Part shown: positions 247 through 26,205 of the stretch, in pieces | Position numbering within the stretch: position 1 is the stretch's first letter | Layout of the letters: each line of letters opens with the position of its first letter | Assembly: GCF_000023965.1 (NCBI RefSeq) | Contig: NC_013202.1 | Coordinates: forward strand, 270,001-302,000 | Direction of reading: 5' to 3' | Source of the DNA: Halomicrobium mukohataei DSM 12286 | Lineage (GTDB): Archaea > Halobacteriota > Halobacteria > Halobacteriales > Haloarculaceae | Length of the DNA: 32,000 nucleotides | The notes under the pieces: generated by a model | The model's input: the letters and a program-made list of their open reading frames with translations, nothing else | The model's database searches: none | What the model was told of the DNA's origin: nothing | Translations under genes and position numbers: made by a program

Positions 247-471
247 ATGACTGCCAGTACGAAACGGAACGTTCCTCGGAACGGTAATCGAACTGCGCTG
301 TCGCGATACGACCTCGTGCTGGCCGTCATTCCGACGGCCTTCGTCGTTGCGCTGCTGTCGAACGTCCTCTTTGGTATCCCGCTGCGAACGGTGTTGCCGG
401 CCAGTTCGCTGGTCGGCGTCCTCGCACTCGCCGACACGCTGTACGTCAATCCGCCGATCGACGGGAGGTGA
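247..471 (+). CDS. small membrane protein with two predicted TM helices, function unknown
   Basis: ORF track 244..471. ATG at 247 is preceded by GGAGGTGA (233-240). Third codon positions are GC-rich. Hydrophobic stretches LVLAVIPTAFVVALLSNVLF and LPASSLVGVLALA. The stop TGA at 469-471 is also the left 3-bp flank of the adjacent repeat element. Confidence 0.5.
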   Translation: MTASTKRNVPRNGNRTALSRYDLVLAVIPTAFVVALLSNVLFGIPLRTVLPASSLVGVLALADTLYVNPPIDGR

Positions 472-549
472 TACTACCGGCTGTAAATCTGTCACGGATT
501 TCGCCACCTCGGGGTGGCGAATATCTGAACGAAGTGACAGCCGGCAGTA
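472..549 (+). mobile_element. MITE-like palindromic element, family 1 (78 bp), copy 1
   Basis: TACTACCGGCTGTAA...TTACAGCCGGCAGTA terminal inverted repeats and a central palindrome TTCGCCACC-TCGG-GGTGGCGAA. 70/78 identical to copy 3 (16753-16830) in the same orientation. Flanked by direct TGA (469-471) and TGA (550-552). Confidence 0.65.
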
Positions 550-814
550 TGAAACCGACGGGCGAGTTACCACTGTCTGGCGCGTCGGGATCGCTCAGTG
601 ATCGGTACGTCGACGAGGGGGAGACAGACCGCAAGCGAGCACGGACGGAGAACGGTCTCGCCAACCTGGTTGGGCACACGTTTTATCAGTCCGGTTACCG
701 TATATAACAATCACGTGACCATCTCACTCTCGTCGGTCGACCGTTTCAATCCCGACGAGGCAACCGGGTTCGACGACTGGCACCGCTTGCAGATCCAGAC
801 AAAATGCACTTCCA

Positions 815-2723: not shown

Positions 2724-3614
2724 ATGCGCGTCGTCACGCTGCTGCCGTCGGCGACCGAGATCGTCTACGCGCTCGGCGTCGAGCCGGTCGGCGTCTCCCA
2801 CGAGTGCGACTATCCCCCGGCGGCCAGCGAGCAGCCGTCGGTGAACCGCTCGCGGGTCGATCCGACGGCCGCGAGCGGCGAGATCAACGAGCAGGTCGCC
2901 GCCGCCGAGGAGGAAGGCGTCTACGCCATCGAACGAGAGACCCTGGCGTCGCTCGATCCCGACCTGATCGTCACGCAGGGCGTCTGTGACGTGTGCGCCG
3001 TCGACCACGTCGTCGTCGAAGACGCGGTCGCGGAACTCGGTCTCGACGCGGAGGTGCTGACGCTCGACGTACACTCCCTCGACGACCTCTTCGAGTCGAT
3101 CCAGCGCATCGGAGACGTACTCGGCCGTGGCGAGCGGGCGAGCGAGCTGGTCGGCGACTTGCGCTCGCGGGTGGCCGAGGTCGAGACGACGGCCGGGCGA
3201 GCCGAGTCGACGCCGAGCGTCGCCGTCCTCGACTGGACGGAGCCGGTCATGGTCGCCGGCCACTGGGTGCCCGAGATGGTCGCCAGCGCCGGTGGCGAGT
3301 ACGGGCTGGAGTCGGCAGGCGCACACTCCCGACCGCGCGAGTGGGACGAGATCAGGGCGTACGATCCGGAGCGACTGATCGTCTCGCCCTGCGGGTTCGA
3401 CCTGGCACAGATCCGCGAAAATCTCACGGACCTGACCGAGCGGCCGGGGTGGGCAGAGCTGTCGGCAGTCCGGAACGGGCACGTCACGCTCGTCGACGGC
3501 CACCACTACGTCAACCGGTCGGGACCGCGCCTCGTCGACACGCTGGAGTTCCTCGGCTGGGCGATCCACCCAGATCCGTTCGATCGACCGCCGAGAGACG
3601 CCGTCAGTCGCTGA
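2724..3614 (+). CDS. BtuF/FhuD-like (type 2 periplasmic-binding-protein fold) substrate-binding protein, no signal peptide
   Basis: 296 aa. RVVTLLPSATEIVYALG, DPDLIV and WTEPVMVAGHWVPEMV blocks are typical of cobalamin/siderophore-binding proteins. The N-terminus starts directly in the first beta strand, so there is no Sec/Tat/lipobox signal. Confidence 0.7.
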   Translation: MRVVTLLPSATEIVYALGVEPVGVSHECDYPPAASEQPSVNRSRVDPTAASGEINEQVAAAEEEGVYAIERETLASLDPDLIVTQGVCDVCAVDHVVVEDAVAELGLDAEVLTLDVHSLDDLFESIQRIGDVLGRGERASELVGDLRSRVAEVETTAGRAESTPSVAVLDWTEPVMVAGHWVPEMVASAGGEYGLESAGAHSRPREWDEIRAYDPERLIVSPCGFDLAQIRENLTDLTERPGWAELSAVRNGHVTLVDGHHYVNRSGPRLVDTLEFLGWAIHPDPFDRPPRDAVSR

Positions 3615-4425
3615 CAGACTCCGAGAGCGAGCAGCGGCCGTCGTACTCGGCCTCGGTCACCGACGACAGCGCCGGATCGGAGCCACAGACCGGGCAGTCC
3701 GGGTTCGGCGCGATCGGCACCTCGTCGACGCTCATCTCGCTCGCGTCGTACACGAGCAACCGTCCGTCGAGACTCTCGCCCTCGTCGAGGAACCACTTGA
3801 CGACCTCCGTCGCCTGGAAACAGCCGATCGTCCCCGGCAGCACGCCCAGCACGCCGGCAGTCGCACAGTCCGGCACCGCCCCCTCTGGCGGTGCCGACGG
3901 GAACAGGCAGCGATAGCAGGGACCCTCGCCCGAGAACGTCGTCACCTGTCCCTCGAAGCGATAGATCGCGCCGTGGGAGACCGGCGTTCCGGCCAGCGTA
4001 CAGGCGTCGTTGACCAGGTACCGGGTCCCGAAGTTGTCGGAGGCGTCGACGACGAGGTCGTAGTCGGCGATCACCTCCTCGGCGTTGTCCCGCGTGAGTC
4101 GCGTCTCGTAGGCGTCGACGGTCACGTCGGGGTTGCGATCGGCGACGAACTCGCTGGCGCTGTCGACCTTCGGTCGGCCCACGTCGTCGTCGGTGTGAAG
4201 CACCTGCCGCTGGAGGTTCGACCGTTCGACCACGTCGTCGTCGACGATGCCCAGCCGTCCGATACCCGCGGCCGCGAGGTACTGCAGCACCGGCGAGCCC
4301 AGGCCACCGGCACCGACGACGAGGACGCTGGCGTCCAGCAGTGCCGCCTGGCCGGACGGCCCGACATCGTCCATGATGACGTGGCGCGAGTACCGGTCGA
4401 GTTGTTCGGGATCGAGATCGACCAT
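3604..4425 (-). CDS. ubaA: E1-like SAMP-activating enzyme (MoeB/ThiF family)
   Basis: 273 aa. LDRYSRHVIM, the Rossmann motif VVGAGGLGSP, ERSNLQRQ, and two CxxC pairs (CYRC, CPVC). Colinear with haloarchaeal UbaA as I remember it. Confidence 0.85.
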   Translation of the reverse strand: MVDLDPEQLDRYSRHVIMDDVGPSGQAALLDASVLVVGAGGLGSPVLQYLAAAGIGRLGIVDDDVVERSNLQRQVLHTDDDVGRPKVDSASEFVADRNPDVTVDAYETRLTRDNAEEVIADYDLVVDASDNFGTRYLVNDACTLAGTPVSHGAIYRFEGQVTTFSGEGPCYRCLFPSAPPEGAVPDCATAGVLGVLPGTIGCFQATEVVKWFLDEGESLDGRLLVYDASEMSVDEVPIAPNPDCPVCGSDPALSSVTEAEYDGRCSLSESVSD

Positions 4426-4461
4426 GGCGAACGTGGACCGCCGAGAACAATAAGGCGTGCG

Positions 4462-5451
4462 CTACCGCTGGGCCTGCCAGTCGGCGACGAGTTCGTCGAC
4501 GGCGCGGTTGATGTCTGCGATCTGTTCGGTCTGGTCGTCGGCTTCCCCGGCGATGGCGGCGGTCGACTCGGCGATCTCCTCTGCGGCGGCCGTCGCCTGA
4601 TCGACCATGCTCGCGACTTCCTCAGTAGAGGCGGCCTGCTGGTCGGTCGCGCTCGCGACCTCCGCGATCCCGTCGTTGACCTCCCGGACCGCGTCGCCGA
4701 TCTCGTCCAAGATCTCGACGGACTCCTCGACGGACTCGATACCCTCGTCGATCTCGGCGTTGGAGGTCTCGAGGCTGTCGACTGCGTTTTCGGTGTTGCC
4801 CTGGATGCGACCGACCATCTGCTCGATCTCGCTGGCCTCGGACTGGGCCTGTTCGGCGAGCGACTTGACTTCGTCGGCGACGACCGCGAAGCCTTCGCCG
4901 GCTTCACCGGCACGCGCGGCCTCGATGGAGGCGTTGAGCGCCAGCATGTTCGTCTGGTCGGCGATGTCGTTGATCACCTCGACGATCTCGTCGATCTCAG
5001 CGACGCTTCGCTGGATCGTTCGGACGTCTTCGGTCACGCTGTCGGCGGCCCCCTGAATCCGCTCCATCGCGCCGTACACGTCCTGTGCGTTCTCCTGGCC
5101 CCGATCGGCCAGCGCCGTCGCCTCCTCGGTCGCCGTCGAGACCTGTTCTGAGGAAGACGCGATCTCCTCGACGGCCGCGCTGAGGTTCGACACCTCTTCG
5201 GCGATCTGGCTCATCCCCTCGTGCTGTTCGGCGGCCCGGCCGCGGATGTCGTCGACCTCTTGGGCGATATCCTCGGACGACGCCTGCAGTTCGGCGATCG
5301 AGGTCTGGATCTCGCTGGCGGCGTCGTTGTCGTAGCCCGCCTGCCGATCCACCCGCTGCTCGATCTGATCGTCGATGTCCGTGTCGAGGTCCTCGTCGAG
5401 ATCACTGGCTGTCGAGAGGTCCGGCTCCGCCCGGGGCTCGGTGTCTGACAT
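4462..5451 (-). CDS. soluble methyl-accepting chemotaxis transducer (signalling domain only)
   Basis: Highly conserved MCP tip [38 protein letters not shown]. No TM helix or HAMP domain. ATG at 5451 is preferred over the GTG at 5475 because a TATA-like box sits about 29 nt upstream, which implies a leaderless transcript. Confidence 0.85.
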
Positions 5452-7256: not shown

Positions 7257-7643
7257 ATGGAACGCGAGACCGTCGATAGCGGCACTGAGTGGGAAGCCGA
7301 AGTGGGCTACTCTCGCGCCGTTCGCGTCGGCGACCGAATCGAGGTGTCGGGGACGACCGCCACCGACGAGGCGGGCGGGGTCGTCGGCGTCGGCGATCCG
7401 TACGCACAGGCAGCGAAGGCGATCGAGAACATCGAGACGGCGCTGGAGACCGCCGGAGCGGGGCTCGAAGACGTGGTCAGGACGCGCATGTTCGTCACGG
7501 AGATCGAGAACTACGAGGCCGTCGGTCGTGCCCACCGCGAGGCGTTCGGCGACGTGCGGCCGGCGACGAGCATGTACGAGATCGAGCGCCTCGTCGATCC
7601 GGACCTGCTCGTCGAGGTCGAAGCGGTCGCGATCAGCGAGTGA
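7257..7643 (+). CDS. RidA/YjgF/UK114 family protein
   Basis: 128 aa from the internal ATG 7257 of track ORF 6882..7643. The sequence before that ATG is a shadow of the carboxypeptidase gene. Typical size and blocks (GDRIEVSGTTA, RTRMFVTEIENYEAVGRAHREAFG, C-terminal LVEVEAVA). Confidence 0.8.
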   Translation: MERETVDSGTEWEAEVGYSRAVRVGDRIEVSGTTATDEAGGVVGVGDPYAQAAKAIENIETALETAGAGLEDVVRTRMFVTEIENYEAVGRAHREAFGDVRPATSMYEIERLVDPDLLVEVEAVAISE

Positions 7644-7738
7644 ACGCGCCGGCCACGTGACGACGACCCGAGCGAAGCGAGCCCCCTCGACGGCGGTGTC
7701 GGTCCCCCAGTTTCACGACCGATAACGAGGGAGGGAGT
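7606..7738 (+). repeat. left direct repeat (att-like) of the AT-rich insertion
   Basis: 7606-7728 equals 9966-10088 except for two substitutions (7625 g/9985 c, 7651 g/10011 a). Degenerate similarity continues about 10 nt further. It contains the last 12 codons and TGA of the RidA gene plus about 85-95 nt of non-coding DNA. Confidence 0.9.
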
Positions 7739-8046
7739 CGTGGGAAATATCGATTCTGTGTATGGTTTTTGAGTGATGCCTGCTGATACATTTGATGACG
7801 CCAGCAGGATCAATGAGATCTGCTGAGCAAGTTCATTGGGGCGAATTACCGCTTGGCTGTCTACAGTTCTATCCCAGCCGTAAGTCTACTGAGGAACGTT
7901 CGAAAGCAGAAGCGAAATACCGCGCAGAACGGATTGATATCTGCCCATTTGAGCCCCATCGTCTTCCAACATCTATTTCTAGTAGATTAAAATATTTCCA
8001 ACTATTCGATACATGTATATGTGTCCACTATTTATGATCATTTGTA

Positions 8047-9162
8047 ATGGCAGATAGTAATAGTGTGAATGAGGTTGACATAGATAAGCGTGAACTATTA
8101 AAGGCCATTGGATCAGTGGGTGCAACCGGTGGATTCCTATCATCCACCGCATCAGCAGGACAAATCGAAGAAGAAGAGGTTGATCTGGATGAGTTTGCAA
8201 CAAAACCAATATATGAGTTAGCTATTGACGTGATTGAGCATCCTAAACACTCAATGCTGGCTTTCACCACGTCAGTGATTGATGAAAGCCTTGGACTTTA
8301 CATCGCCACGGGTGTGTCTAAGCCAAAGAATTCCTATCTCCCTCGAGAGGGTACCCCACCAGGTCGGCGTGCCACGGAGGTAATCAAAGTAGCGGAAGCC
8401 AAGACTGGCGCTATAATGCAACTCGAATGGCACAGCAAGACCGAAATTAGCTACTGGGAAGCTGGTGAGATAATTGCCACTGATGTTTCAGATATAACCA
8501 ATAAATTAGATACCGGAAATAATGGGCGGCGGTCACACAGGAACAATTCCAAAGGCCCATCGGTGGAAATCCAGTCCCAGCCTTCGGATCGAAAAAAGAG
8601 AGTTGTGAGTAAGCAGACTGCTCCAGACTCTCTCCAAGGTATTATCGAAACACAATCCGAAACACCATCTACTGAAATAACTACGCAACAGTTTGATCCA
8701 TCCCGCTGTAACATTCCAAAGCTACCACAGGTCGGTATTGAAGAGTGTCAGGATGCTGGTGCATTCGGTGAGTTTTGTGCAAAAACTACCTCAATAGGCT
8801 GCATGAGAAAGCAATGCTCATGGGGCAAGACACCACCGCTACTTTCAGTCCCTGTGACGATTGCTGAAGGAAATGTTGGTGATGGAAAGGTTTATATTGA
8901 CATGTGGGCTGGATTGGAGATCACAGATTCAGGAAAATATTGCGTTTGGCTAGGCAGTGAAGCTGCTGGCGTTTGCGTGACGGATTGCTACCGAGACCGT
9001 CCTGATACGGCTGAAGCAACTAAGCTTGCAGAAGATTTCGTTCCTGAAATAGATCTTTTTGGGGCCGCCAAATTTGTCGGTGAAGTGATTGTCACTCTGA
9101 TAGCACTAATTATACTTGCTATCGTTGCAGCGGCGGCAGGGATAACCGGTGTAGGTGCATAG
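8047..9162 (+). CDS. secreted, C-terminally anchored Cys-rich protein with a Tat-like (KR) signal, function unknown
   Basis: 371 aa. N-terminus DIDKRELLKAIGSVGATGGFLSSTASA|GQ resembles a twin-arginine signal with KR and an AxA cleavage site. A polar linker follows. All 8 Cys lie in residues 221-314 (nt 8707-8988). C-terminal hydrophobic helix VIVTLIALIILAIVAAAAGITGVGA. It is the only long ORF on either strand in this region. Confidence 0.7.
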   Translation: MADSNSVNEVDIDKRELLKAIGSVGATGGFLSSTASAGQIEEEEVDLDEFATKPIYELAIDVIEHPKHSMLAFTTSVIDESLGLYIATGVSKPKNSYLPREGTPPGRRATEVIKVAEAKTGAIMQLEWHSKTEISYWEAGEIIATDVSDITNKLDTGNNGRRSHRNNSKGPSVEIQSQPSDRKKRVVSKQTAPDSLQGIIETQSETPSTEITTQQFDPSRCNIPKLPQVGIEECQDAGAFGEFCAKTTSIGCMRKQCSWGKTPPLLSVPVTIAEGNVGDGKVYIDMWAGLEITDSGKYCVWLGSEAAGVCVTDCYRDRPDTAEATKLAEDFVPEIDLFGAAKFVGEVIVTLIALIILAIVAAAAGITGVGA

Positions 9163-9221
9163 AGAACAAAGACAATATTATTGATCGCAGATCAAACAAC
9201 CATATATCACATTCCAGAATA

Positions 9222-9584
9222 ATGAGAAAGCTCCTGCTGCTCGCTTTTGCGCATATTGTAATTATAGCAACGATTTGGTTCCCGGAAAATTTTCTAAGTG
9301 ATGTATTTCAAACTTGGCTGGTGATCGTGGGCTTCACTATTTGCCCAGTTTTAATTTCGGCTATTCTGTGGAATCTGGGTCGAACTGAATGGAAATTCGC
9401 CCGTTCAAAAATTCACCCCCCCATCGTTTTACTTGTACTTACTGCTATGATTAATGGAGTTTCTCTTCTAATTACCGTGTCTCGGATAATTGAATTGGTG
9501 ATTCTTCTCGCTATTCTTCTTTCACTTCTTGCTGAAGCACGAGGTCTTTTTTATGCTTATAAGCAACTGTCGAGGAGGGGTTGA
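9222..9584 (+). CDS. small polytopic membrane protein (about 4 TM helices), function unknown
   Basis: 120 aa with four hydrophobic segments (LLLLAFAHIVIIATIWF, WLVIVGFTICPVLISAILW, PPIVLLVLTAMINGVSLLITV, LVILLAILLSLLA). Same strand as the Cys-rich protein gene and 59 nt downstream of it. AT-rich codon usage. Confidence 0.6.
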   Translation: MRKLLLLAFAHIVIIATIWFPENFLSDVFQTWLVIVGFTICPVLISAILWNLGRTEWKFARSKIHPPIVLLVLTAMINGVSLLITVSRIIELVILLAILLSLLAEARGLFYAYKQLSRRG

Positions 9585-9775
9585 TTACGATTAGGGACAT
9601 TCGACTTCCACTCAGCATGGTCCTGGCCCTCGCCTTCGTCATGCTCGCCCCAGTCGTTCTCACCGCCACAGTCTACGGGATTGCGCTGGCTGCTCTGGGG
9701 GAACCACTCCTCGCCGGAGCTGTCGCACTCGTCTGTCGTGCCATGCTCCTCATACTGCCGGCTGTACCTTCGTGA
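9581..9775 (+). CDS. possible small membrane protein whose 3' end runs into a MITE-like element
   Basis: 64 codons. TTG start overlaps the TGA of the preceding ORF (alternative ATG at 9617). Two hydrophobic helices. GC content is host-like. The stop TGA at 9773-9775 lies inside repeat copy 2. Confidence 0.3.
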   Translation: MITIRDIRLPLSMVLALAFVMLAPVVLTATVYGIALAALGEPLLAGAVALVCRAMLLILPAVPS

Positions 9776-9830
9776 AGATCTTCGCCACCCCGGGGTGGCG
9801 AAATCGCTCACAGATTTACAGCCGGTAGTA
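9753..9830 (-). mobile_element. MITE-like palindromic element, family 1 (78 bp), copy 2 (inverted)
   Basis: Its reverse complement differs from copy 3 at only 2 of 78 positions. Flanked by direct TCA (9750-9752) and TCA (9831-9833). Confidence 0.7.
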
Positions 9831-9965
9831 TCAGTACGGAACTCCTGTTCGGCGAGCACTTCTTCGAACGAATTTCGGACGACTCAGACCGAAGAAGAGA
9901 CGACGAACAGCTGGCACAGGTCATCCAGCACTTCTCTCAGCAACGGGGTATCGCTCCGCCGACGT

Positions 9966-10098
9966 TGCTCGTCGAGGTCGAAGCCGTCGCGATCAGCGAG
10001 TGAACGCGCCAGCCACGTGACGACGACCCGAGCGAAGCGAGCCCCCTCGACGGCGGTGTCGGTCCCCCAGTTTCACGACCGATAACGAAGGGGGCAGT
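9966..10098 (+). repeat. right direct repeat (att-like) of the AT-rich insertion
   Basis: Duplicate of 7606-7738 (see the left repeat). It carries an orphan copy of the RidA C-terminal codons and TGA (10001-10003). Confidence 0.9.
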
Positions 10099-16555: not shown

Positions 16556-16752
16556 CGACAGCGCGCGACCCCCCAACCGTGCTCGTATCGCCGCTGTGTT
16601 CGGGCAGACCGTTCGACTGTCTCGACGCGCGCCGAGGCGACCGGTCCGAGGCCGGTCGCCGGGCCAGCGCTGTCGGTCTCAATCATGCTGTACACCCAGA
16701 GATAGAGCATGAAAAACGTTGTTAGACCGGCCCCGGACGAGCGGCGGTTTCA

Positions 16753-16830
16753 TACTACCGGCTGTAAATCTGTGAACGATTTCGCCACCCCGGGGTGGCG
16801 AAGATCTTCACGAAGTTACAGCCGGCAGTA
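16753..16830 (+). mobile_element. MITE-like palindromic element, family 1 (78 bp), copy 3
   Basis: TACTACCGGCTGTAA...TTCGCCACCCCGGGGTGGCGAA...TTACAGCCGGCAGTA. Flanked by direct TCA (16750-16752) and TCA (16831-16833). The latter is the stop codon (TGA) of the gamma-glutamyltransferase gene. Confidence 0.7.
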
Positions 16831-18426
16831 TCAGAACCCGACGCTACTCCCGTCCTTGCGTGGTTCGGTCGCGCCAGACAGCGTCCCGTCGGGCTCGCGG
16901 CGCGCGATCTGGCCGCCACCGAACTGTCGGGGCGGGAGGACGGCCACGTCGTGTTCCCGTCGGGCGAGGTCGGCACCGATCTCGCCGGCCAGCCGTTCCT
17001 CCAGCGCGAGGCGGCCGTCCTCCATGTAGCGCCAGCGCGGCGCGTCGAAGGCCCGCTGGAGGGGCATCTCGTCGTCGATGAGGTTGCTGAGGACCTGGAC
17101 GTGGCCCTGCGGTTGCATGTATCCGCCCATGACGCCGAAGGCCGCCCAGTCCTCGTCGTCGAGTTCGACGAGGCCGGGGATCAGCGTGTGGAACGGCTTC
17201 TTGCCCGGTTCGAGCGTGTTGGGGTGGTCCGGATCGAGCGAGAACGACGCGCCGCGGTTCTGGAGGACGATCCCCGTGTCGGGGACGACGACGCCGCTGC
17301 CGAAGCCGTTGTACAGCGAGTTGATGAACGAGACGACGTTGCCCGCCTCGTCGGCGACGGTCAGCAAGACCGTGTCGCTGTCCTCGTCGGGGAGACCCGG
17401 CCCGCCGACGCTGACCTCGCCAGCGGTCTCGTCGACCGTCGCCGCCCGCTCGCTCGCGTACGCTGGATCGTGAAGATCCGGAACGGACTCGAAGTCGGGG
17501 TCGGTGATGTAGTGGTGGCCGTCGTGGAAGGCCCGCTTCATCGCCTCGGCGAAGTAGTGGACGCGCTCGGGCGAGCCCGCGGGGTGGTCGCCAGCGCCCA
17601 GCTCCGCGGCGACGTTGAGCGCCTCCAGCGCGATCAGGCCCTGGTTGTTCGGCGGCAGCTCGTAGACGGTCGCGCCGCCGTAGGTCGTCGAGACGGGATC
17701 GACCACGTCGGGGGTAAAGCCCGCGAGGTCGTCGGCCGAGAGGAGACCGCCCTCGGCCTGGACGGCCTGGCCGATCCGCTCGGCGATCGCCCCCTCGTAG
17801 AAGGCGTCGGCTCCCTCGCGGGCGACGGTCTCGAACGTCTCGCCCAGCCCCGGCAGCGTGACGGTCTGGCCCACGTCCGGTGCCTCGCCGCCGGGCAGGT
17901 ACGCCTCGCGGCCGGCGTCGCTGACGAACCGCTGGGCACAGGCGGCCCACGCGTCGGCGATGATCTCGCTGACCGGGTACCCCTCGGTCGCGTACTCGAT
18001 GGCCGGCTGGAGCACGTCGCCGAGCGCGAGCCGACCGTGCGCTTCGACGGTGTGCTCCCAGCCCCGCGCCGCGCCCGGAACCGTGATCGCCAGCGGGCCG
18101 AAGTCTGGCATCTCGCCGTCGTCGACGCGGTCCCGGACGGCCTCGCGTGTCGCGCGCTGGGGTGCGCCGCCACAGCTCCGGAGCGCGCCCACCTCGCCGT
18201 CGGCCGTGCGATACAGCGCGAACGCGTCCCCGCCGATACCGGTGCTCATGGGCTCGACGACGTTCAGCGCCGCCGCCGTGGCGACGGCCGCGTCGAAGGC
18301 GTTACCGCCCTCGCGGAGGAGTCTGACGCCGGCCTGTGCGGCCAGTGGCTGGCTCGTCGAGACGACGCCGCGGTTCGCGTAGACGGTAGAACGGCGCGAG
18401 TCGAACCGATCGAGGTCTGGATCCAT
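16831..18426 (-). CDS. ggt: gamma-glutamyltransferase
   Basis: 531 aa from ATG 18426 (the track TTG is at 18453). Blocks GGNAFDAAVA, PMSTGIGGDAF, DSDTVLLTVADEAGNVVSFINSLY and FGVMGGYMQPQGHVQVL match the GGT family. Confidence 0.88.
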   Translation of the reverse strand: MDPDLDRFDSRRSTVYANRGVVSTSQPLAAQAGVRLLREGGNAFDAAVATAAALNVVEPMSTGIGGDAFALYRTADGEVGALRSCGGAPQRATREAVRDRVDDGEMPDFGPLAITVPGAARGWEHTVEAHGRLALGDVLQPAIEYATEGYPVSEIIADAWAACAQRFVSDAGREAYLPGGEAPDVGQTVTLPGLGETFETVAREGADAFYEGAIAERIGQAVQAEGGLLSADDLAGFTPDVVDPVSTTYGGATVYELPPNNQGLIALEALNVAAELGAGDHPAGSPERVHYFAEAMKRAFHDGHHYITDPDFESVPDLHDPAYASERAATVDETAGEVSVGGPGLPDEDSDTVLLTVADEAGNVVSFINSLYNGFGSGVVVPDTGIVLQNRGASFSLDPDHPNTLEPGKKPFHTLIPGLVELDDEDWAAFGVMGGYMQPQGHVQVLSNLIDDEMPLQRAFDAPRWRYMEDGRLALEERLAGEIGADLARREHDVAVLPPRQFGGGQIARREPDGTLSGATEPRKDGSSVGF

Positions 18427-18501
18427 ACTGCTGGCAAACGGAGACAGGGGCAAAAGCGTTGGTCCGGGACAGTAGAGTGTCGACTTCCAGAATCAGTGGC
18501 A

Positions 18502-19266
18502 TCAGGACGGGACGGTCGCCCGGAACTGCTCGGGATCCTCGTGGAAACAATCGCCGACGATGATCGCGTCCGCACCAGCATCGAGGATCTCACGGGCGCG
18601 ACGACGACTATTGATCCCGCCACCGTAGACGAGTGTCGCGTCATCGAGGTGGGATGCCGCCGCTTCGACCTCTTCGGGACCGCCATAGGTACCCGAATAT
18701 TCCAGATAGAAGATCGGGAAGCCGTAGAACGCTTCCGTTGCGAGAGCCGCACCGGCGACCTGCTCGGTCGTGTACGCCGTCTCGACCCCCGAAACTGTCG
18801 CAGCCTTCGATTCGATGTTCTGGATGACGTATCCTTCGCCGACGATCTTGTCTGCCATCCGGGCAACCGCGTCCAACCCTTTCGACGCGATGAGATCGCC
18901 GAGCACTGGCAAGCCGGTGCCAAACAGTTCTTCGGGTTTGTTGCCGACTTCGGTGAAGAGATCGAGATGCTTACCCACGAAGTGCTCGCGGTCCCCGTTG
19001 TAAACGGCTGGAATCGCCAGAAGGTCCACGGCGTCGATAGTATCAGTCGAGACGTGATCCGAGCTGTACGGTTCCTGAAGGATGGGGATCGACGGGACCG
19101 CCTCACCGATCTGCTCAATCACTGCGAGCGTGTTCTCGGCCGTGACGCCGTCGGAACCACCGACGATGATCGCGTCTGTCTCCGACAGCACGCCGATGTC
19201 GCGTGGGAGATCCTTCGCGGGATCGATCTTCGTCACGTGGGTGATATCGTCCCAGTCGAGGTTCAT
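18502..19266 (-). CDS. geranylgeranylglyceryl phosphate synthase (PcrB/GGGPS family)
   Basis: 254 aa. ITHVTKIDP, IIVGGSDGVT and LVYGGGINS...AGADAIIVGD are typical of the GGGPS TIM-barrel family. Confidence 0.85.
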   Translation of the reverse strand: MNLDWDDITHVTKIDPAKDLPRDIGVLSETDAIIVGGSDGVTAENTLAVIEQIGEAVPSIPILQEPYSSDHVSTDTIDAVDLLAIPAVYNGDREHFVGKHLDLFTEVGNKPEELFGTGLPVLGDLIASKGLDAVARMADKIVGEGYVIQNIESKAATVSGVETAYTTEQVAGAALATEAFYGFPIFYLEYSGTYGGPEEVEAAASHLDDATLVYGGGINSRRRAREILDAGADAIIVGDCFHEDPEQFRATVPS

Positions 19267-19410
19267 AATTGCCGTGCGAAAGCGACGAAGATAATCCTTG
19301 CTCTCTCTCGAATTCGAGCGAGTGCCCCACAGTTATTTTCATACACCCGCCGGTCGGGTCGTATCGGCAACAGCGTCCGAGTGCAAAGGCACCGCACAAC
19401 ACCGGAGCGG

Positions 19411-19785
19411 TTATTCCGAGAACGAACTGGAGCCGACCGGCGGCGTCTCGTGCTGGAACGTCTGGACCTCCACGGTCCGCCCGTCCGGGTCGGTCGCGAA
19501 GAACTGGTAGATCCCGAAGTCGTCGTTCGGTTTCGGCGGGCCGCGGGCCACGTCGGCGAGGTCGGCGTGACAGTCGTCGACGGCCGCCTCGTCGTCGAGG
19601 ACGACCGTGACGATCCCGTCGGTCTCCGTCTCGGTCCCGTCGCAGAAGCCGACGAGGAGGTTGTCGTACGCGAGAATCGTACAGCCGCCGTCCTGTTCGA
19701 GCCACACGTCGAAGCCGAGTCGATCGGTGTAGAAGGAGACGGTCTCGGCGCGGTTCTCGGTCCGGAAGAAGACGATCCCAGACAT
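19411..19785 (-). CDS. VOC (glyoxalase/bleomycin-resistance/dioxygenase) family protein
   Basis: 124 aa. FYTDRLGF... and the overall size and pattern fit a single paired beta-alpha-beta-beta-beta module. Confidence 0.65.
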   Translation of the reverse strand: MSGIVFFRTENRAETVSFYTDRLGFDVWLEQDGGCTILAYDNLLVGFCDGTETETDGIVTVVLDDEAAVDDCHADLADVARGPPKPNDDFGIYQFFATDPDGRTVEVQTFQHETPPVGSSSFSE

Positions 19786-19870
19786 ACCGCCACCGAGACG
19801 CGCCAGCCACGTGAGCGTGCCGGCTGGCGTCGGCGGCGCTGGACGGGGCCGCGACGACAGCGTGCCCTCA

Positions 19871-19949
19871 TACGGAAAATTGTAGTTGCTTACCGGTGAG
19901 CGTCGCCACGGGGTAGACGCTCACCGGTACATTCCTACAACCGTCCGTA
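19871..19949 (+). mobile_element. MITE-like palindromic element, family 2 (79 bp), copy A
   Basis: TACGGAAAATTGTAG...TTACCGGTGAGCGTC-GCCACGGGGTA-GACGCTCACCGGTA...CTACAACCGTCCGTA. Perfect 14-bp inner stem. Flanked by direct TCA (19868-19870) and TCA (19950-19952). The latter is the stop codon of cbiO. Confidence 0.65.
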
Positions 19950-20756
19950 TCACTGCCGTCGCAGTCGTTCGACCGCTTCCTCGACGCGGACCGGCAGGTC
20001 CTCGAAGCCCGCCCGGTCGAACAGTTCGACGACGGTCGGGGGCGCGAGGCCGGCCTCGCGGAGTCGGTCGGTGTCGGTCAACACTTCGCGAGTCGATCCC
20101 GTCGCGACGACGCGCCCGTCCCGGCCCAGCAGGACGACCCGGTCGGCCACCGCCGCGACGAGGTCGGTGTCCGGTGTCGACGTGACGATCGTCACGCCGT
20201 CGGCCGACAGTTCGTCCAGCAGATCGAGCAGTTCGGCCTCGTTGTTGCCGTCGACGTTCGACAGCGGCTCGTCTAGCAGGAGTACGTCCGGGTCGACCGA
20301 GAGCACGCTGGCGATGGCGGCGCGGCGCTGTTCGCCGCCGCTGAGTCGGAACGGCGGGCGATCGAGGAGGTGTTCGAGGTCGAACCGCTCGGCCAGCTCG
20401 GCGACGCGCCGGTCGGCTTCGGCGGCCGACAGCCCCAGCTGGGCGGGGCCGTACTCGATGTCTTCGCGCACGGTCGGGTTGAACAGGTACTCGCCGGGGT
20501 CCTGCGTGAGCACGCCCAGCCGGTCGCGAACGGCGTCGCCCGGCTGGTCCGTCCCGAAGTAGCGAACGGAGCCGTCGTCGGGCGGTAACAGCCCGCCCAG
20601 CAGGAGCAAGAGCGTGGACTTGCCCGCGCCGTTGGGGCCGAGCAGCGCGACCCGTTCGCCGGCCTCGATCGTCAGGTCGACGCCGTCGACGGCGGTGGTG
20701 CCGTCCTCGTACCGGTAGGCCAGACCCGACGCTTCGATCACCGGGTCCGCCGTCAC
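19950..20756 (-). CDS. cbiO: ECF-type Ni/Co transporter ATPase component
   Basis: 268 aa. Walker A GPNGAGKST, signature LSGGEQRR, Walker B LLLDEP. The GTG start overlaps the cbiQ stop (GTGA). Confidence 0.88.
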   Translation of the reverse strand: MTADPVIEASGLAYRYEDGTTAVDGVDLTIEAGERVALLGPNGAGKSTLLLLLGGLLPPDDGSVRYFGTDQPGDAVRDRLGVLTQDPGEYLFNPTVREDIEYGPAQLGLSAAEADRRVAELAERFDLEHLLDRPPFRLSGGEQRRAAIASVLSVDPDVLLLDEPLSNVDGNNEAELLDLLDELSADGVTIVTSTPDTDLVAAVADRVVLLGRDGRVVATGSTREVLTDTDRLREAGLAPPTVVELFDRAGFEDLPVRVEEAVERLRRQ

Positions 20757-25311: not shown

Positions 25312-26022
25312 ATGACGTTCGGGATCGAAACCGCGTACGTCGGCTGTGGACGTGCCGGGCGTGCGCTGGTCCGCGACGGGCTCGAAGAGCGGACGGGCGA
25401 GGCGGCGACGCCGGACCGGGGACCGGACCCCCGGCTGCTCACCATCGATAGCGGTGCGGACGAACCGGCGGCGGTGCTCGCGGCGTTCGATGTCGTCGTC
25501 GTGACCGGAGCTGTCGACAGTCCCGACGCACGGCGACAGATCGCCGAAGTCGGACGGGCGTGTCCGGACGACGCGACCTGTGTCGGTGTCGTCACCGGGA
25601 CGACGGACCGGGGGATCGAGCGGCTCGGCCGAGCGTGTGACACCGTCGTCCCCGTCGAGACCGACGCGCTCGCACGGGAGTTCGCGACCGACCTGCTGAC
25701 GTGGGCGAGCGAGCCGATGCTGCTGCGAACGGATTCGTCGCAGGTGTACGACGACCTCGACGGCGCTGGGGTCGCCGCCGTCGACCGTGTGACCGGCGAT
25801 CGAACGGCACTGCCGGCGCTCGTCGAGCGGGCCAGCGTCGACGAGACCGCGGACGGCCAGCGGCTCTGCTTTGGCTACCTCGCCTTCGGCGTCGACTTTA
25901 CCCTGGCCGACGACGAGCGGTTCCGGAGGCTCTGTGACCGGCCCGAGGTGGTCACCGGGCGGGCCAGCCTGGCCGAGCCCGACGCGTGTCGGCTGACGGC
26001 GGTCCGGCGGGTCCCGGAGTGA
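25312..26022 (+). CDS. hypothetical protein with degenerate FtsZ/tubulin-like colinearity
   Basis: 236 aa, GC3-rich, 21 nt downstream of the PIN-ATPase-KH gene. Blocks YVGCGRAGRALV, LLTIDSGAD, FDVVVVTGAVDSPDARRQIAEV, CVGVVTGTTDRG and IERLGRACDTVVPVETDAL align by eye with FtsZ H1/T1, NTD, T4, S5 and S6, but the GTP-binding signatures are lost. Confidence 0.6.
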   Translation: MTFGIETAYVGCGRAGRALVRDGLEERTGEAATPDRGPDPRLLTIDSGADEPAAVLAAFDVVVVTGAVDSPDARRQIAEVGRACPDDATCVGVVTGTTDRGIERLGRACDTVVPVETDALAREFATDLLTWASEPMLLRTDSSQVYDDLDGAGVAAVDRVTGDRTALPALVERASVDETADGQRLCFGYLAFGVDFTLADDERFRRLCDRPEVVTGRASLAEPDACRLTAVRRVPE

Positions 26023-26062
26023 CGGTCCCGGCGAGTGTGACAGTGACAATCGAAGCGACTCA

Positions 26063-26141
26063 TACGGATTATTGTAGCGATTTACCGGTGATCGTCTACT
26101 CCGTGGCGAAGATCACCGGTAAGCAACTACAATAAACCGTA
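26063..26141 (-). mobile_element. MITE-like palindromic element, family 2 (79 bp), copy B (inverted)
   Basis: Its reverse complement matches copy A at about 66/79 positions, including ATTGTAGTTGCTTACCGGTGA and CGCCACGG.GTAGACG. 12-bp perfect inner stem TTACCGGTGATC/GATCACCGGTAA. Flanked by direct TCA (26060-26062) and TCA (26142-26144). Confidence 0.65.
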
Positions 26142-26205
26142 TCACACACCGATCGCACGGCCGTCGTTGGATCGAGCGTGCGTCGACTTGCAGTGGCTCC
26201 GACGA

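Follow-up and report, generated by a model that had tools for sequence, protein, structure and literature searches.

The question raised by a 32,000-nucleotide stretch of the Halomicrobium mukohataei DSM 12286 genome (NC_013202.1, positions 270,001 to 302,000; hereafter the window, with a G+C content of 65.7%) is why five palindromes of 78 or 79 bp each lie between two copies of the same trinucleotide, and why in three of the five cases one of these copies is the stop codon of the adjacent gene. The explanation that we favor, and hold with considerable confidence, is that the palindromes are non-autonomous haloarchaeal transposons (miniature inverted-repeat transposable elements or MITEs) that insert at C-T(C/G)A-G and duplicate the middle three bases of this target. 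In about 40-60% of 213 copies, the duplicated TNA also serves as a stop codon. Elements of this kind are already known; for the present families, for their target and for the extent to which they occupy stop codons we found no earlier description, and a literature search of incomplete coverage returned no earlier account of these elements or of prokaryotic MITEs that duplicate stop codons.

Repeat and pattern searches revealed that the window contains exactly three 78-bp elements (family 1) and two 79-bp elements (family 2), and no others. Every one of them begins with TAC and ends with GTA. Family-1 copy 1 (472..549, plus strand) stands between a proximal TGA at 469..471 and a distal TGA at 550..552 (both plus strand), the proximal one being the stop codon of a 74-aa DUF8015 gene (PF26047) placed at 247-471 on the plus strand by the public record and at 316-471 by our own gene caller. 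Copy 2 of the same family (9753..9830, minus strand) lies within a low-GC island, off any stop codon, between TCA duplications at 9750..9752 and 9831..9833 to which no strand is assigned. Copy 3 (16753..16830, plus strand) is bordered by a distal, non-coding duplication at 16750..16752 (TCA on the plus strand, TGA on the minus strand) and by a proximal one at 16831..16833, both assigned to the minus strand, the latter being the TGA stop codon of the gamma-glutamyltranspeptidase gene ggt (16831-18453 at most, minus strand; PF01019, E = 1.5e-144; 531 aa in the public record). Family-2 copy A (19871..19949, plus strand) is similarly placed between a distal duplication at 19868..19870 and a proximal one at 19950..19952 (both minus strand), which is the TGA stop codon of an ABC-transporter ATPase gene (19950-20756, minus strand; PF00005, E = 3e-31). 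Copy B (26063..26141, minus strand), flanked by unstranded TCA duplications at 26060..26062 and 26142..26144, lies off any stop codon between convergent genes ending at 26022 and 26206. All coordinates of the five elements and of their 3-bp flanks were as proposed in the initial annotation. That three of the flank copies are gene stops was likewise upheld, by Pfam matches for ggt and the ABC ATPase and by the public-record DUF8015 gene for 469-471. Three of the approximately 31 genes of the window end directly in such an element.

The public gene annotation used was that of CP045142.1 (GCA_009217585.1, a 3.09-Mb chromosome), a part of which is identical to the window, positions 1-32000 corresponding to approximately 929253-961252 of that record. 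Our own calls came from a crude codon-usage caller trained on long, high-GC3 open reading frames (ORFs), which is not a validated gene finder and which recovers those genes of the window that have Pfam support. In single-stranded form, the elements are predicted to form hairpins of -39 to -50 kcal/mol, the z-scores being about -7 to -9 (-39.7 kcal/mol and z -6.95 for copy 1; -45.7 and -49.6 kcal/mol, z -8.5 and -9.3, for the two strands of copy 3; -46.2 kcal/mol, z -7.7, for copy A). The GTA|TGA junction on the distal side of every TGA-type insertion (e.g. 16750-16755 and 19868-19873) creates an outward-facing ATG; that of copy A opens a 202-codon ORF (19263-19871, minus strand), out of frame with the real downstream gene.

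The flanks read TGA...TGA at copy 1 and TCA...TCA at the other four elements, while copies 1 and 3 share the same internal orientation, copy 2 is inverted relative to them, and copies A and B are mutually inverted. The sequence thus agrees with the earlier remark that copies 1 and 3 are alike inside and yet differ in their flanks. With T and A fixed, five matching middle bases would arise by chance approximately once in 32, so that the window alone is weak evidence for a duplication and the wider sample is decisive. For family 1, this sample came from a scan of one genome per species with a pattern devoid of the flanks, which yielded at least 120 blocks of 8 kb; the matches listed were from Halomicrobium, Haloarcula, Halapricum, Halovenus, Natronomonas, Halalkalirubrum and several Halobacteriales metagenome-assembled genomes (MAGs), along with a few chance matches in Bacteroidota, and a profile search of these blocks gave approximately 150 copies, of which 117 had both ends intact. 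The nearest copies elsewhere, among the matches listed, were in Halomicrobium katesii and on a Halomicrobium plasmid. A metagenome scan for family 2 provided 88 stretches with 96 intact copies at 83 distinct insertion sites.

Identical 3-bp flanks were found at 88 of the 117 family-1 copies (42 TGA, 37 TCA, 5 TAA and 4 TTA) and at 84 of the 96 family-2 copies (46 TGA and 38 TCA), the other 29 and 12 showing mostly one-base differences. Where both flanks were of the form T-N-A, the middle base was the same in 88/95 family-1 and 84/84 family-2 copies, against permutation expectations of 37.5 and 42.4, and the observed values were reached in none of 20,000 permutations. One mismatch recurs, with CGA in the gene-distal copy and TGA in the proximal one (equivalent to TCG...TCA); it was seen five times in family 1 and five times in family 2 (three TCG...TCA and two TGA...CGA). 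Examples are found at L013 5781, L061 1903, L164 2314 and L158 1390, the L-numbers being labels of the fetched comparison loci and contigs, which include metagenome contigs, MAGs and parts of plasmid pLC1Hm-01.

Sites without the element were then available in relatives. The neighborhood of ggt (CbiQ, the ABC ATPase, a 122-aa gene, ggt, a major facilitator superfamily (MFS) transporter and urease) is syntenic in metagenome contigs with ggt 83-90% identical, and the ggt of contigs L123 and L124 shares 89% protein identity with that of the window. Copies 3 and A are both absent from the orthologous sites of L123/L124. The 3' end of ggt reads ...GGGTTC TGA ACCGCCGTCGCTCG in these contigs versus ...GGGTTC TGA (element) TGA AACCGCCGCTCG in the window, and that of the ABC ATPase gene reads ...GAG TGA GTGCACGCTGTCGTGGCGG versus ...CAG TGA (element) TGA GGGCACGCTGTCGTCGCGG. 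A third pair was provided by L077 and L081, two MAGs that are 94-99% identical: L077 carries a related 108-bp element (TAGTGTTTATCACGAG...) flanked by TCA...TCA where L081 has a single TCA. Together, the three filled/empty comparisons indicate that one TGA or TCA was present before insertion and two after it. The empty-site comparison that had been called for therefore came out as anticipated, with a single TGA at the ggt and ABC-ATPase stops and a single TCA in L081; this, and flanks that are direct repeats whatever the orientation of the element, support the claim that the trinucleotide is a target-site duplication lying outside the element. In the orthologs of ggt and of the ABC-ATPase gene, the coding sequence stops at this one TGA and homologous sequence follows directly, in agreement with the proposal that insertion into a stop codon regenerates the stop. 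For copy 1, the DUF8015 gene is missing altogether from the sole syntenic contig, L195.

The contig comparisons revealed some further differences. In L123/L124, an intact family-1 copy with flanks TCG...TCA lies 3' of the ABC ATPase gene (approximately 2340-2420 in L123), and at 19813-19828 of the window, as well as at the same place in L122, approximately 13 nucleotides resemble one family-1 end plus its flank. The segment of the window (19813..19828, minus strand; TGA plus gcgTGCCGGCTGg) is probably what is left of a decayed or deleted family-1 copy, as judged from the alignment with L123/L124. L122 also harbors two extra genes (3085-4681; 149 and 224 aa, no Pfam match) between ggt and the MFS transporter gene, where other relatives have a spacer of 69-71 bp. 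One of two contigs that are 98% identical carries a 1.8-kb insertion (L213 3245-5055 versus L165 4604-4614), the ends of which are unlike those of the hairpin elements.

The duplicated trinucleotide is part of a longer preferred target. C precedes the duplication in 70/117 family-1 and 66/96 family-2 copies, and G follows it in 70/117 and 62/96, respectively. As the preference for C and G was retained (62%) among intergenic insertions only, it is not a side effect of stop-codon context. The preferred target is C|TNA|G, N being C or G in 90% of the family-1 duplications and in all those of family 2. Beyond the C...G pair, the flanks were no more complementary than those of random CTSAG sites (S denoting C or G), leaving the hypothesis of a hairpin or palindromic target unsupported.

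To classify the targets, the element and one flank copy were removed, genes were called on the restored sequence, and the site was then assigned. Thirty-three of 88 family-1 sites (37%) fell at a predicted stop codon, 50 were intergenic and 5 lay in called coding sequence; for the 75 unique family-2 sites, the corresponding numbers were 45 (60%), 28 and 2, the share at stops being 40/60 away from contig ends. By a caller-free criterion, under which the flank had to terminate an open frame with a positive coding score and no fewer than 50 codons, stops were placed at 43/117 family-1 and 53/96 family-2 copies. Null expectations, which count sites outside genes or at stops, were 11.6% for TNA, 24% for CTNAG and 20-26% for a position-weight matrix built from intergenic insertions only in the case of family 1 (binomial p = 5e-11 against the plain motif and 1e-3 after motif correction), and 18% for TSA and 50% for CTSAG in the case of family 2 (p = 2.5e-16 and 0.006). 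Approximately 64% of CTSAG sites lie in coding sequence, from which the elements are nearly absent, and about half of the CTSAG sites of these genomes that are non-coding or at a stop are stop codons (family-2 analysis). Selection against promoter regions was considered as a source of the excess and was not seen, as divergent promoter regions received 14 of 38 intergenic insertions against 37% of sites. Rather than recognition of stop codons, it is mainly the target motif, together with the loss of intragenic insertions, that accounts for the excess at stops. Of the initial proposal that stop codons are enriched, the over-representation itself was retained (33/88 and 45/75 versus the plain-motif nulls), while most of it proved to be a by-product of the C-TSA-G preference and of purging.

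A plausible course of events may be put together from these data. A transposase acting in trans would cut C|TNA|G, in which N is C or G in 85-100% of cases, with a 3-nucleotide stagger and join the ends of the element to the target, and repair would then duplicate TNA; we infer a stagger of three nucleotides rather than one, as well as neutrality of the hairpin for expression, and our best guess for the enzyme is an IS5/IS1031-like DDE transposase. Because TGA is the common stop in these GC-rich genomes and often occurs as C-TGA-G, stops make up a large share of the usable non-coding targets. The duplication restores the stop on the gene side and leaves the protein unchanged, so that the insertion is tolerated, and insertions within genes are lost. 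Many genes thus end at once in a hairpin of -40 to -50 kcal/mol.

The elements display the usual attributes of MITEs. They are short (78-79 bp), non-coding and bounded by terminal inverted repeats of 15 bp; they are dispersed in more than 200 copies over many genera, with polymorphism and clean empty sites in the three filled/empty pairs; and they generate a duplication of fixed length, 3-bp TNA, in the proportions of copies given above. In 86 distinct 78-nucleotide copies of family 1, positions 1-15 and 64-78 are conserved (94-100%) and complementary, positions 29-50 form a conserved 22-bp central palindrome, TTCGCCACCCCGGGGTGGCGAA, and the intervening stretches at 16-28 and 51-63 vary and for the most part do not pair. 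Compensatory changes occur in the central stem, where pair 35:44 is A-T in 48 copies and G-C in 27. Elements of both families share this layout of terminal repeats, a conserved palindrome in the center and, between them, two variable spacers of poor complementarity. The end pattern TAC-G-----TGTA is common to the families. Scanning for short TAC...GTA elements brought up further families, TACGGTCGGTTGT (78 bp), TACTGTCGGACAC (108 bp) and TACGGATTAGTGCGAT (108 and 219 bp), otherwise unrelated in sequence and with matching TGA or TCA flanks in almost all cases. Families 1 and 2 are part of a superfamily of hairpin elements, 78-110 bp long, that is widespread among Haloarculaceae and other Halobacteriales.

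Relative to the adjacent gene, the elements are oriented at random (17 same and 16 opposite in family 1; 20 and 25 in family 2), and copies insert into one another, both of which we count as selfish behavior. Copies of a 79-bp sister family found mainly in a Halovenus MAG, TACTGTCGGACGG, are nested in the terminal or subterminal TA of family-1 copies at L040 73-228, L047 6380-6540 and L050 4111-4269.

The parent transposase was sought in the same material. In the fetched loci, both solo ends and end pairs spaced 200-4000 bp from each other proved to belong to separate MITEs on either side of ordinary host genes (peptidyl-prolyl isomerase, helicase, EF-1 beta and universal stress protein), and the sequence inward of the solo ends gave no repeats elsewhere in these loci. 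Comparing all loci against all returned orthologous pairs only and no insertion sequence with these ends, and a scan of viral contigs with a 14-nucleotide end returned 120 single chance matches and no element. In two 50-kb parts of the Halomicrobium plasmid pLC1Hm-01, which carry two MITEs, the only transposase was an ISH3-type fragment, which was rejected as the parent. This unannotated fragment (L217 45799-46476, pLC1Hm-01 219799-220476; NF033541, E = 1e-13; PF01609) lies approximately 860 bp from a family-1 copy in a 4.4-kb stretch without listed genes.

Several points weigh against our explanation. Approximately 1.5 Mb of fetched haloarchaeal DNA and 100 kb of plasmid pLC1Hm-01 yielded no autonomous element with matching ends, and the single end of an IS1031-group element that was compared, GAACCTGTCTAGTATCT, is unlike TACTGCCGGCTGTAA. 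The copies were collected with patterns demanding conserved ends and a conserved center, the family-1 genome scan being limited to the matches listed. The excess at stops left after correction for CTSAG is modest (p about 0.001-0.006). The sister family TACTGTCGGACGG has flanks TA...TA and duplicates TA, not TNA. Finally, sequence cannot separate a 3-bp duplication around TAC...GTA from a 1-bp duplication around ATAC...GTAT.

That last point opens the way to a different placement of the boundary, which we nonetheless regard as unlikely: an 80-bp element, ATAC...GTAT, would insert between the T and the A of T-N-A and duplicate 1 bp (none in the sister family), through an enzyme atypical for the DDE class. 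It predicts the same filled and empty sequences as the 3-bp placement. Approximately 14 copies differ only at the outermost base of the flank (e.g. GCA...TCA and TGA...TGC), as such a model allows, but approximately 12 differ at the inner base (e.g. TGA...CGA), a similar rate, as decay of a 3-bp duplication predicts. The small mobile repeats (SMRs) of Haloquadratum have been recorded as 80+1=81 and 110+1=111 bp, which match 78+3 and 108+3, and two reports describe IS5-related PHIS transposons as varying markedly in duplication and the Spy group as making none (PMC4122938, PMC4482050). Against the 80-bp placement, the outer T and A of the family-1 flanks are nearly invariant (108 and 115 of 117, respectively), and a 3-bp TNA duplication has a documented precedent (PMC12016507). 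We have used the 3-bp boundary as the conventional one, with its precedent in the IS1031 group of the IS5 family.

Equally improbable, in our judgment, is a functional basis for the association with stops, in which the hairpins would be kept or recruited as 3'-end elements, whether as terminators, as mRNA stabilizers or as signals for translation or termination, or the transposase would recognize gene ends. In its favor are the excess over the motif-aware nulls (40% versus 20-26% in family 1 and 67% versus 50% in family 2), the very stable predicted hairpins and the compensatory changes in the central stem. The random orientation speaks against an RNA function tied to one strand, but this test has less force because the hairpin is nearly symmetric. 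Haloarchaeal terminators are U-tracts, and the consensus is devoid of a T-run, the longest in family 1 being of three residues; neither the defined orientation nor the U-tract after the stem expected of an intrinsic terminator or 3' untranslated region (3' UTR) element was found. In addition, presence or absence differs between close relatives with the gene unchanged, divergent promoter regions are hit as often as expected, the target flanks are neither palindromic nor hairpin-like, and a search of the elements against Rfam returned no family at the gathering threshold.

Having retained insertion with a 3-bp duplication at C-T(C/G)A-G as the preferred explanation, we give very little weight to the possibility that the palindromes are REP-like (repetitive extragenic palindrome) or IS200/IS605-type sequences mobilized in single-stranded form by a transposase of the HUH (Y1) type, for instance RAYT or TnpA. 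The whole element does fold as a hairpin, and haloarchaea are rich in IS200/IS605-type elements and non-coding derivatives thereof (PMC3119063). However, IS605-type elements and their palindrome-associated transposable elements (PATEs) have neither terminal inverted repeats nor a target duplication (PMC3119063), both of which are present here, and insertion occurs at the symmetric C|TNA|G in either orientation rather than at the fixed oligonucleotide that would typify REP/RAYT sequences or PATEs. Least tenable of all is a reading of T-N-A as part of the element, an 84-bp palindrome with one variable position and nothing duplicated, since, even though the outer T...A and A...T extend the inverted repeat, the middle bases are complementary in only 2/95 family-1 and 0/84 family-2 copies against 88 and 84 that are identical, and the empty sites keep one TGA or TCA; the permutation result and the empty sites refute it.

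Among characterized systems, TNA is the preferred target of the IS1031 group of the IS5 family, which generates exclusively 3-bp repeats (PMC12016507; PMC1676026), and the elements described here share with its MITEs a TNA target, an exclusively 3-bp direct repeat that includes TGA, short length, terminal inverted repeats and the absence of coding capacity. They depart from these MITEs in their ends (TACTGCCGGCTGTAA versus GAACCTGTCTAGTATCT, the one published IS1031-group end compared) and in the narrower target, C-T(C/G)A-G. No IS5-type gene with these ends was found in the fetched loci, and the DNA examined yielded nothing of insertion-sequence length bearing such ends, so that the pointer to IS5/IS1031 comes solely from the type of duplication. 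The initial suggestion of an IS5/Harbinger-like 3-bp TNA duplication may thus be kept in its first half, the duplication fitting the IS1031 group; no parent was found in the fetched DNA, and the TAA/TTA pattern of Harbinger elements does not apply.

The eukaryotic Tourist MITEs, whose PIF/Harbinger superfamily is related to IS5, prefer TAA or TTA, in contrast to the TGA or TCA seen in our archaeal hosts at 79/88 family-1 and 84/84 family-2 duplications. They resemble the present elements in being small hairpins near genes with a T-x-A duplication, the length of which is given as 3 bp in PMC2213677. TAA or TTA accounted for 9/88 family-1 and 0/84 family-2 duplications in our sample, and the TA duplication of IS630/Tc1-mariner (Stowaway) elements was absent from families 1 and 2, with only TACTGTCGGACGG showing TA...TA. 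Correia and ERIC elements duplicate TA. The bacterial Correia/NEMIS, ERIC and RUP elements are hairpin MITEs of similar size (approximately 100 bp) with terminal inverted repeats, co-transcribed with their neighbors and forming stable RNA stem-loops (PMC2229807, PMC10969869), for which, unlike the elements studied here, duplication as the stop codon of a neighbor has not been systematically described in these two sources.

The closest parallel in haloarchaea is provided by the SMRs of Haloquadratum walsbyi, SMR-A of approximately 110 bp and HqIRS41 of approximately 80 bp (Dyall-Smith et al. 2011, PMC3119063), which have terminal inverted repeats unrelated to any transposon and strain-specific insertions, and whose mobilization was called enigmatic (PMC3119063). 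The two sets of elements are alike in size (80 and approximately 110 bp there, 78-80 and 108-109 bp here), in their prominent terminal inverted repeats unrelated to any transposon, in their frequent insertion into other mobile elements and in their strain-specific insertions, and the net insertions of 81 and 111 bp match our 78+3 and 108+3. SMRs differ in having been described without a target duplication, the tables giving a 1-bp overlap and not three, and in preferring the near-terminal palindromes of IS605-type elements (PMC3119063). On the basis of the published description, SMRs may be elements of the same type, with each end placed one base further outward. Haloquadratum plasmid PL47 held no such element. 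A bolder proposal, to which we assign only a slim chance, is that these hairpins and the SMRs form one orphan superfamily whose mover has no matching-end element of its own (being chromosomal, perhaps a domesticated IS5/PHIS-like protein, or of an unrecognized type), reads only TAC-G-----TGTA and cuts C|TSA|G, and that the copies sited at TGA give a sizeable fraction of haloarchaeal genes (approximately 10% in the window) a 3' hairpin that the host now uses.

The low-GC island that holds family-1 copy 2 extends over approximately 2.2 kb (7606-10098; 40-47% G+C versus 66%) and is flanked by 133-bp direct repeats (7606-7738 and 9966-10098) that are 96% identical, the left one overlapping the 3' end of a RidA-like gene (7257-7643). 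Besides copy 2, it contains two ORFs without Pfam match (8047-9162, 371 aa, and 9222-9584, 120 aa). The island has the appearance of foreign DNA that has integrated as an element and is bordered by an att-like duplication.

For the biology of these archaea, the findings mean that genomes of several haloarchaeal genera carry dozens of unannotated hairpins of 78-110 bp, many of them flush against stop codons, where they can mislead predictions of gene ends, terminators and small RNAs. To steer a selfish element to gene ends, it is enough that the target motif is short and that the duplication has the right length; as the duplicated TGA keeps the protein intact, no recognition of the stop codon is needed. 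The C|TSA|G target and the end pattern provide a concrete handle for finding the missing transposase, and may account for the small mobile repeats of Haloquadratum, described as 'enigmatic' in 2011. Filled and empty alleles of close strains, finally, are ready-made markers and natural experiments on archaeal 3'-UTR hairpins.

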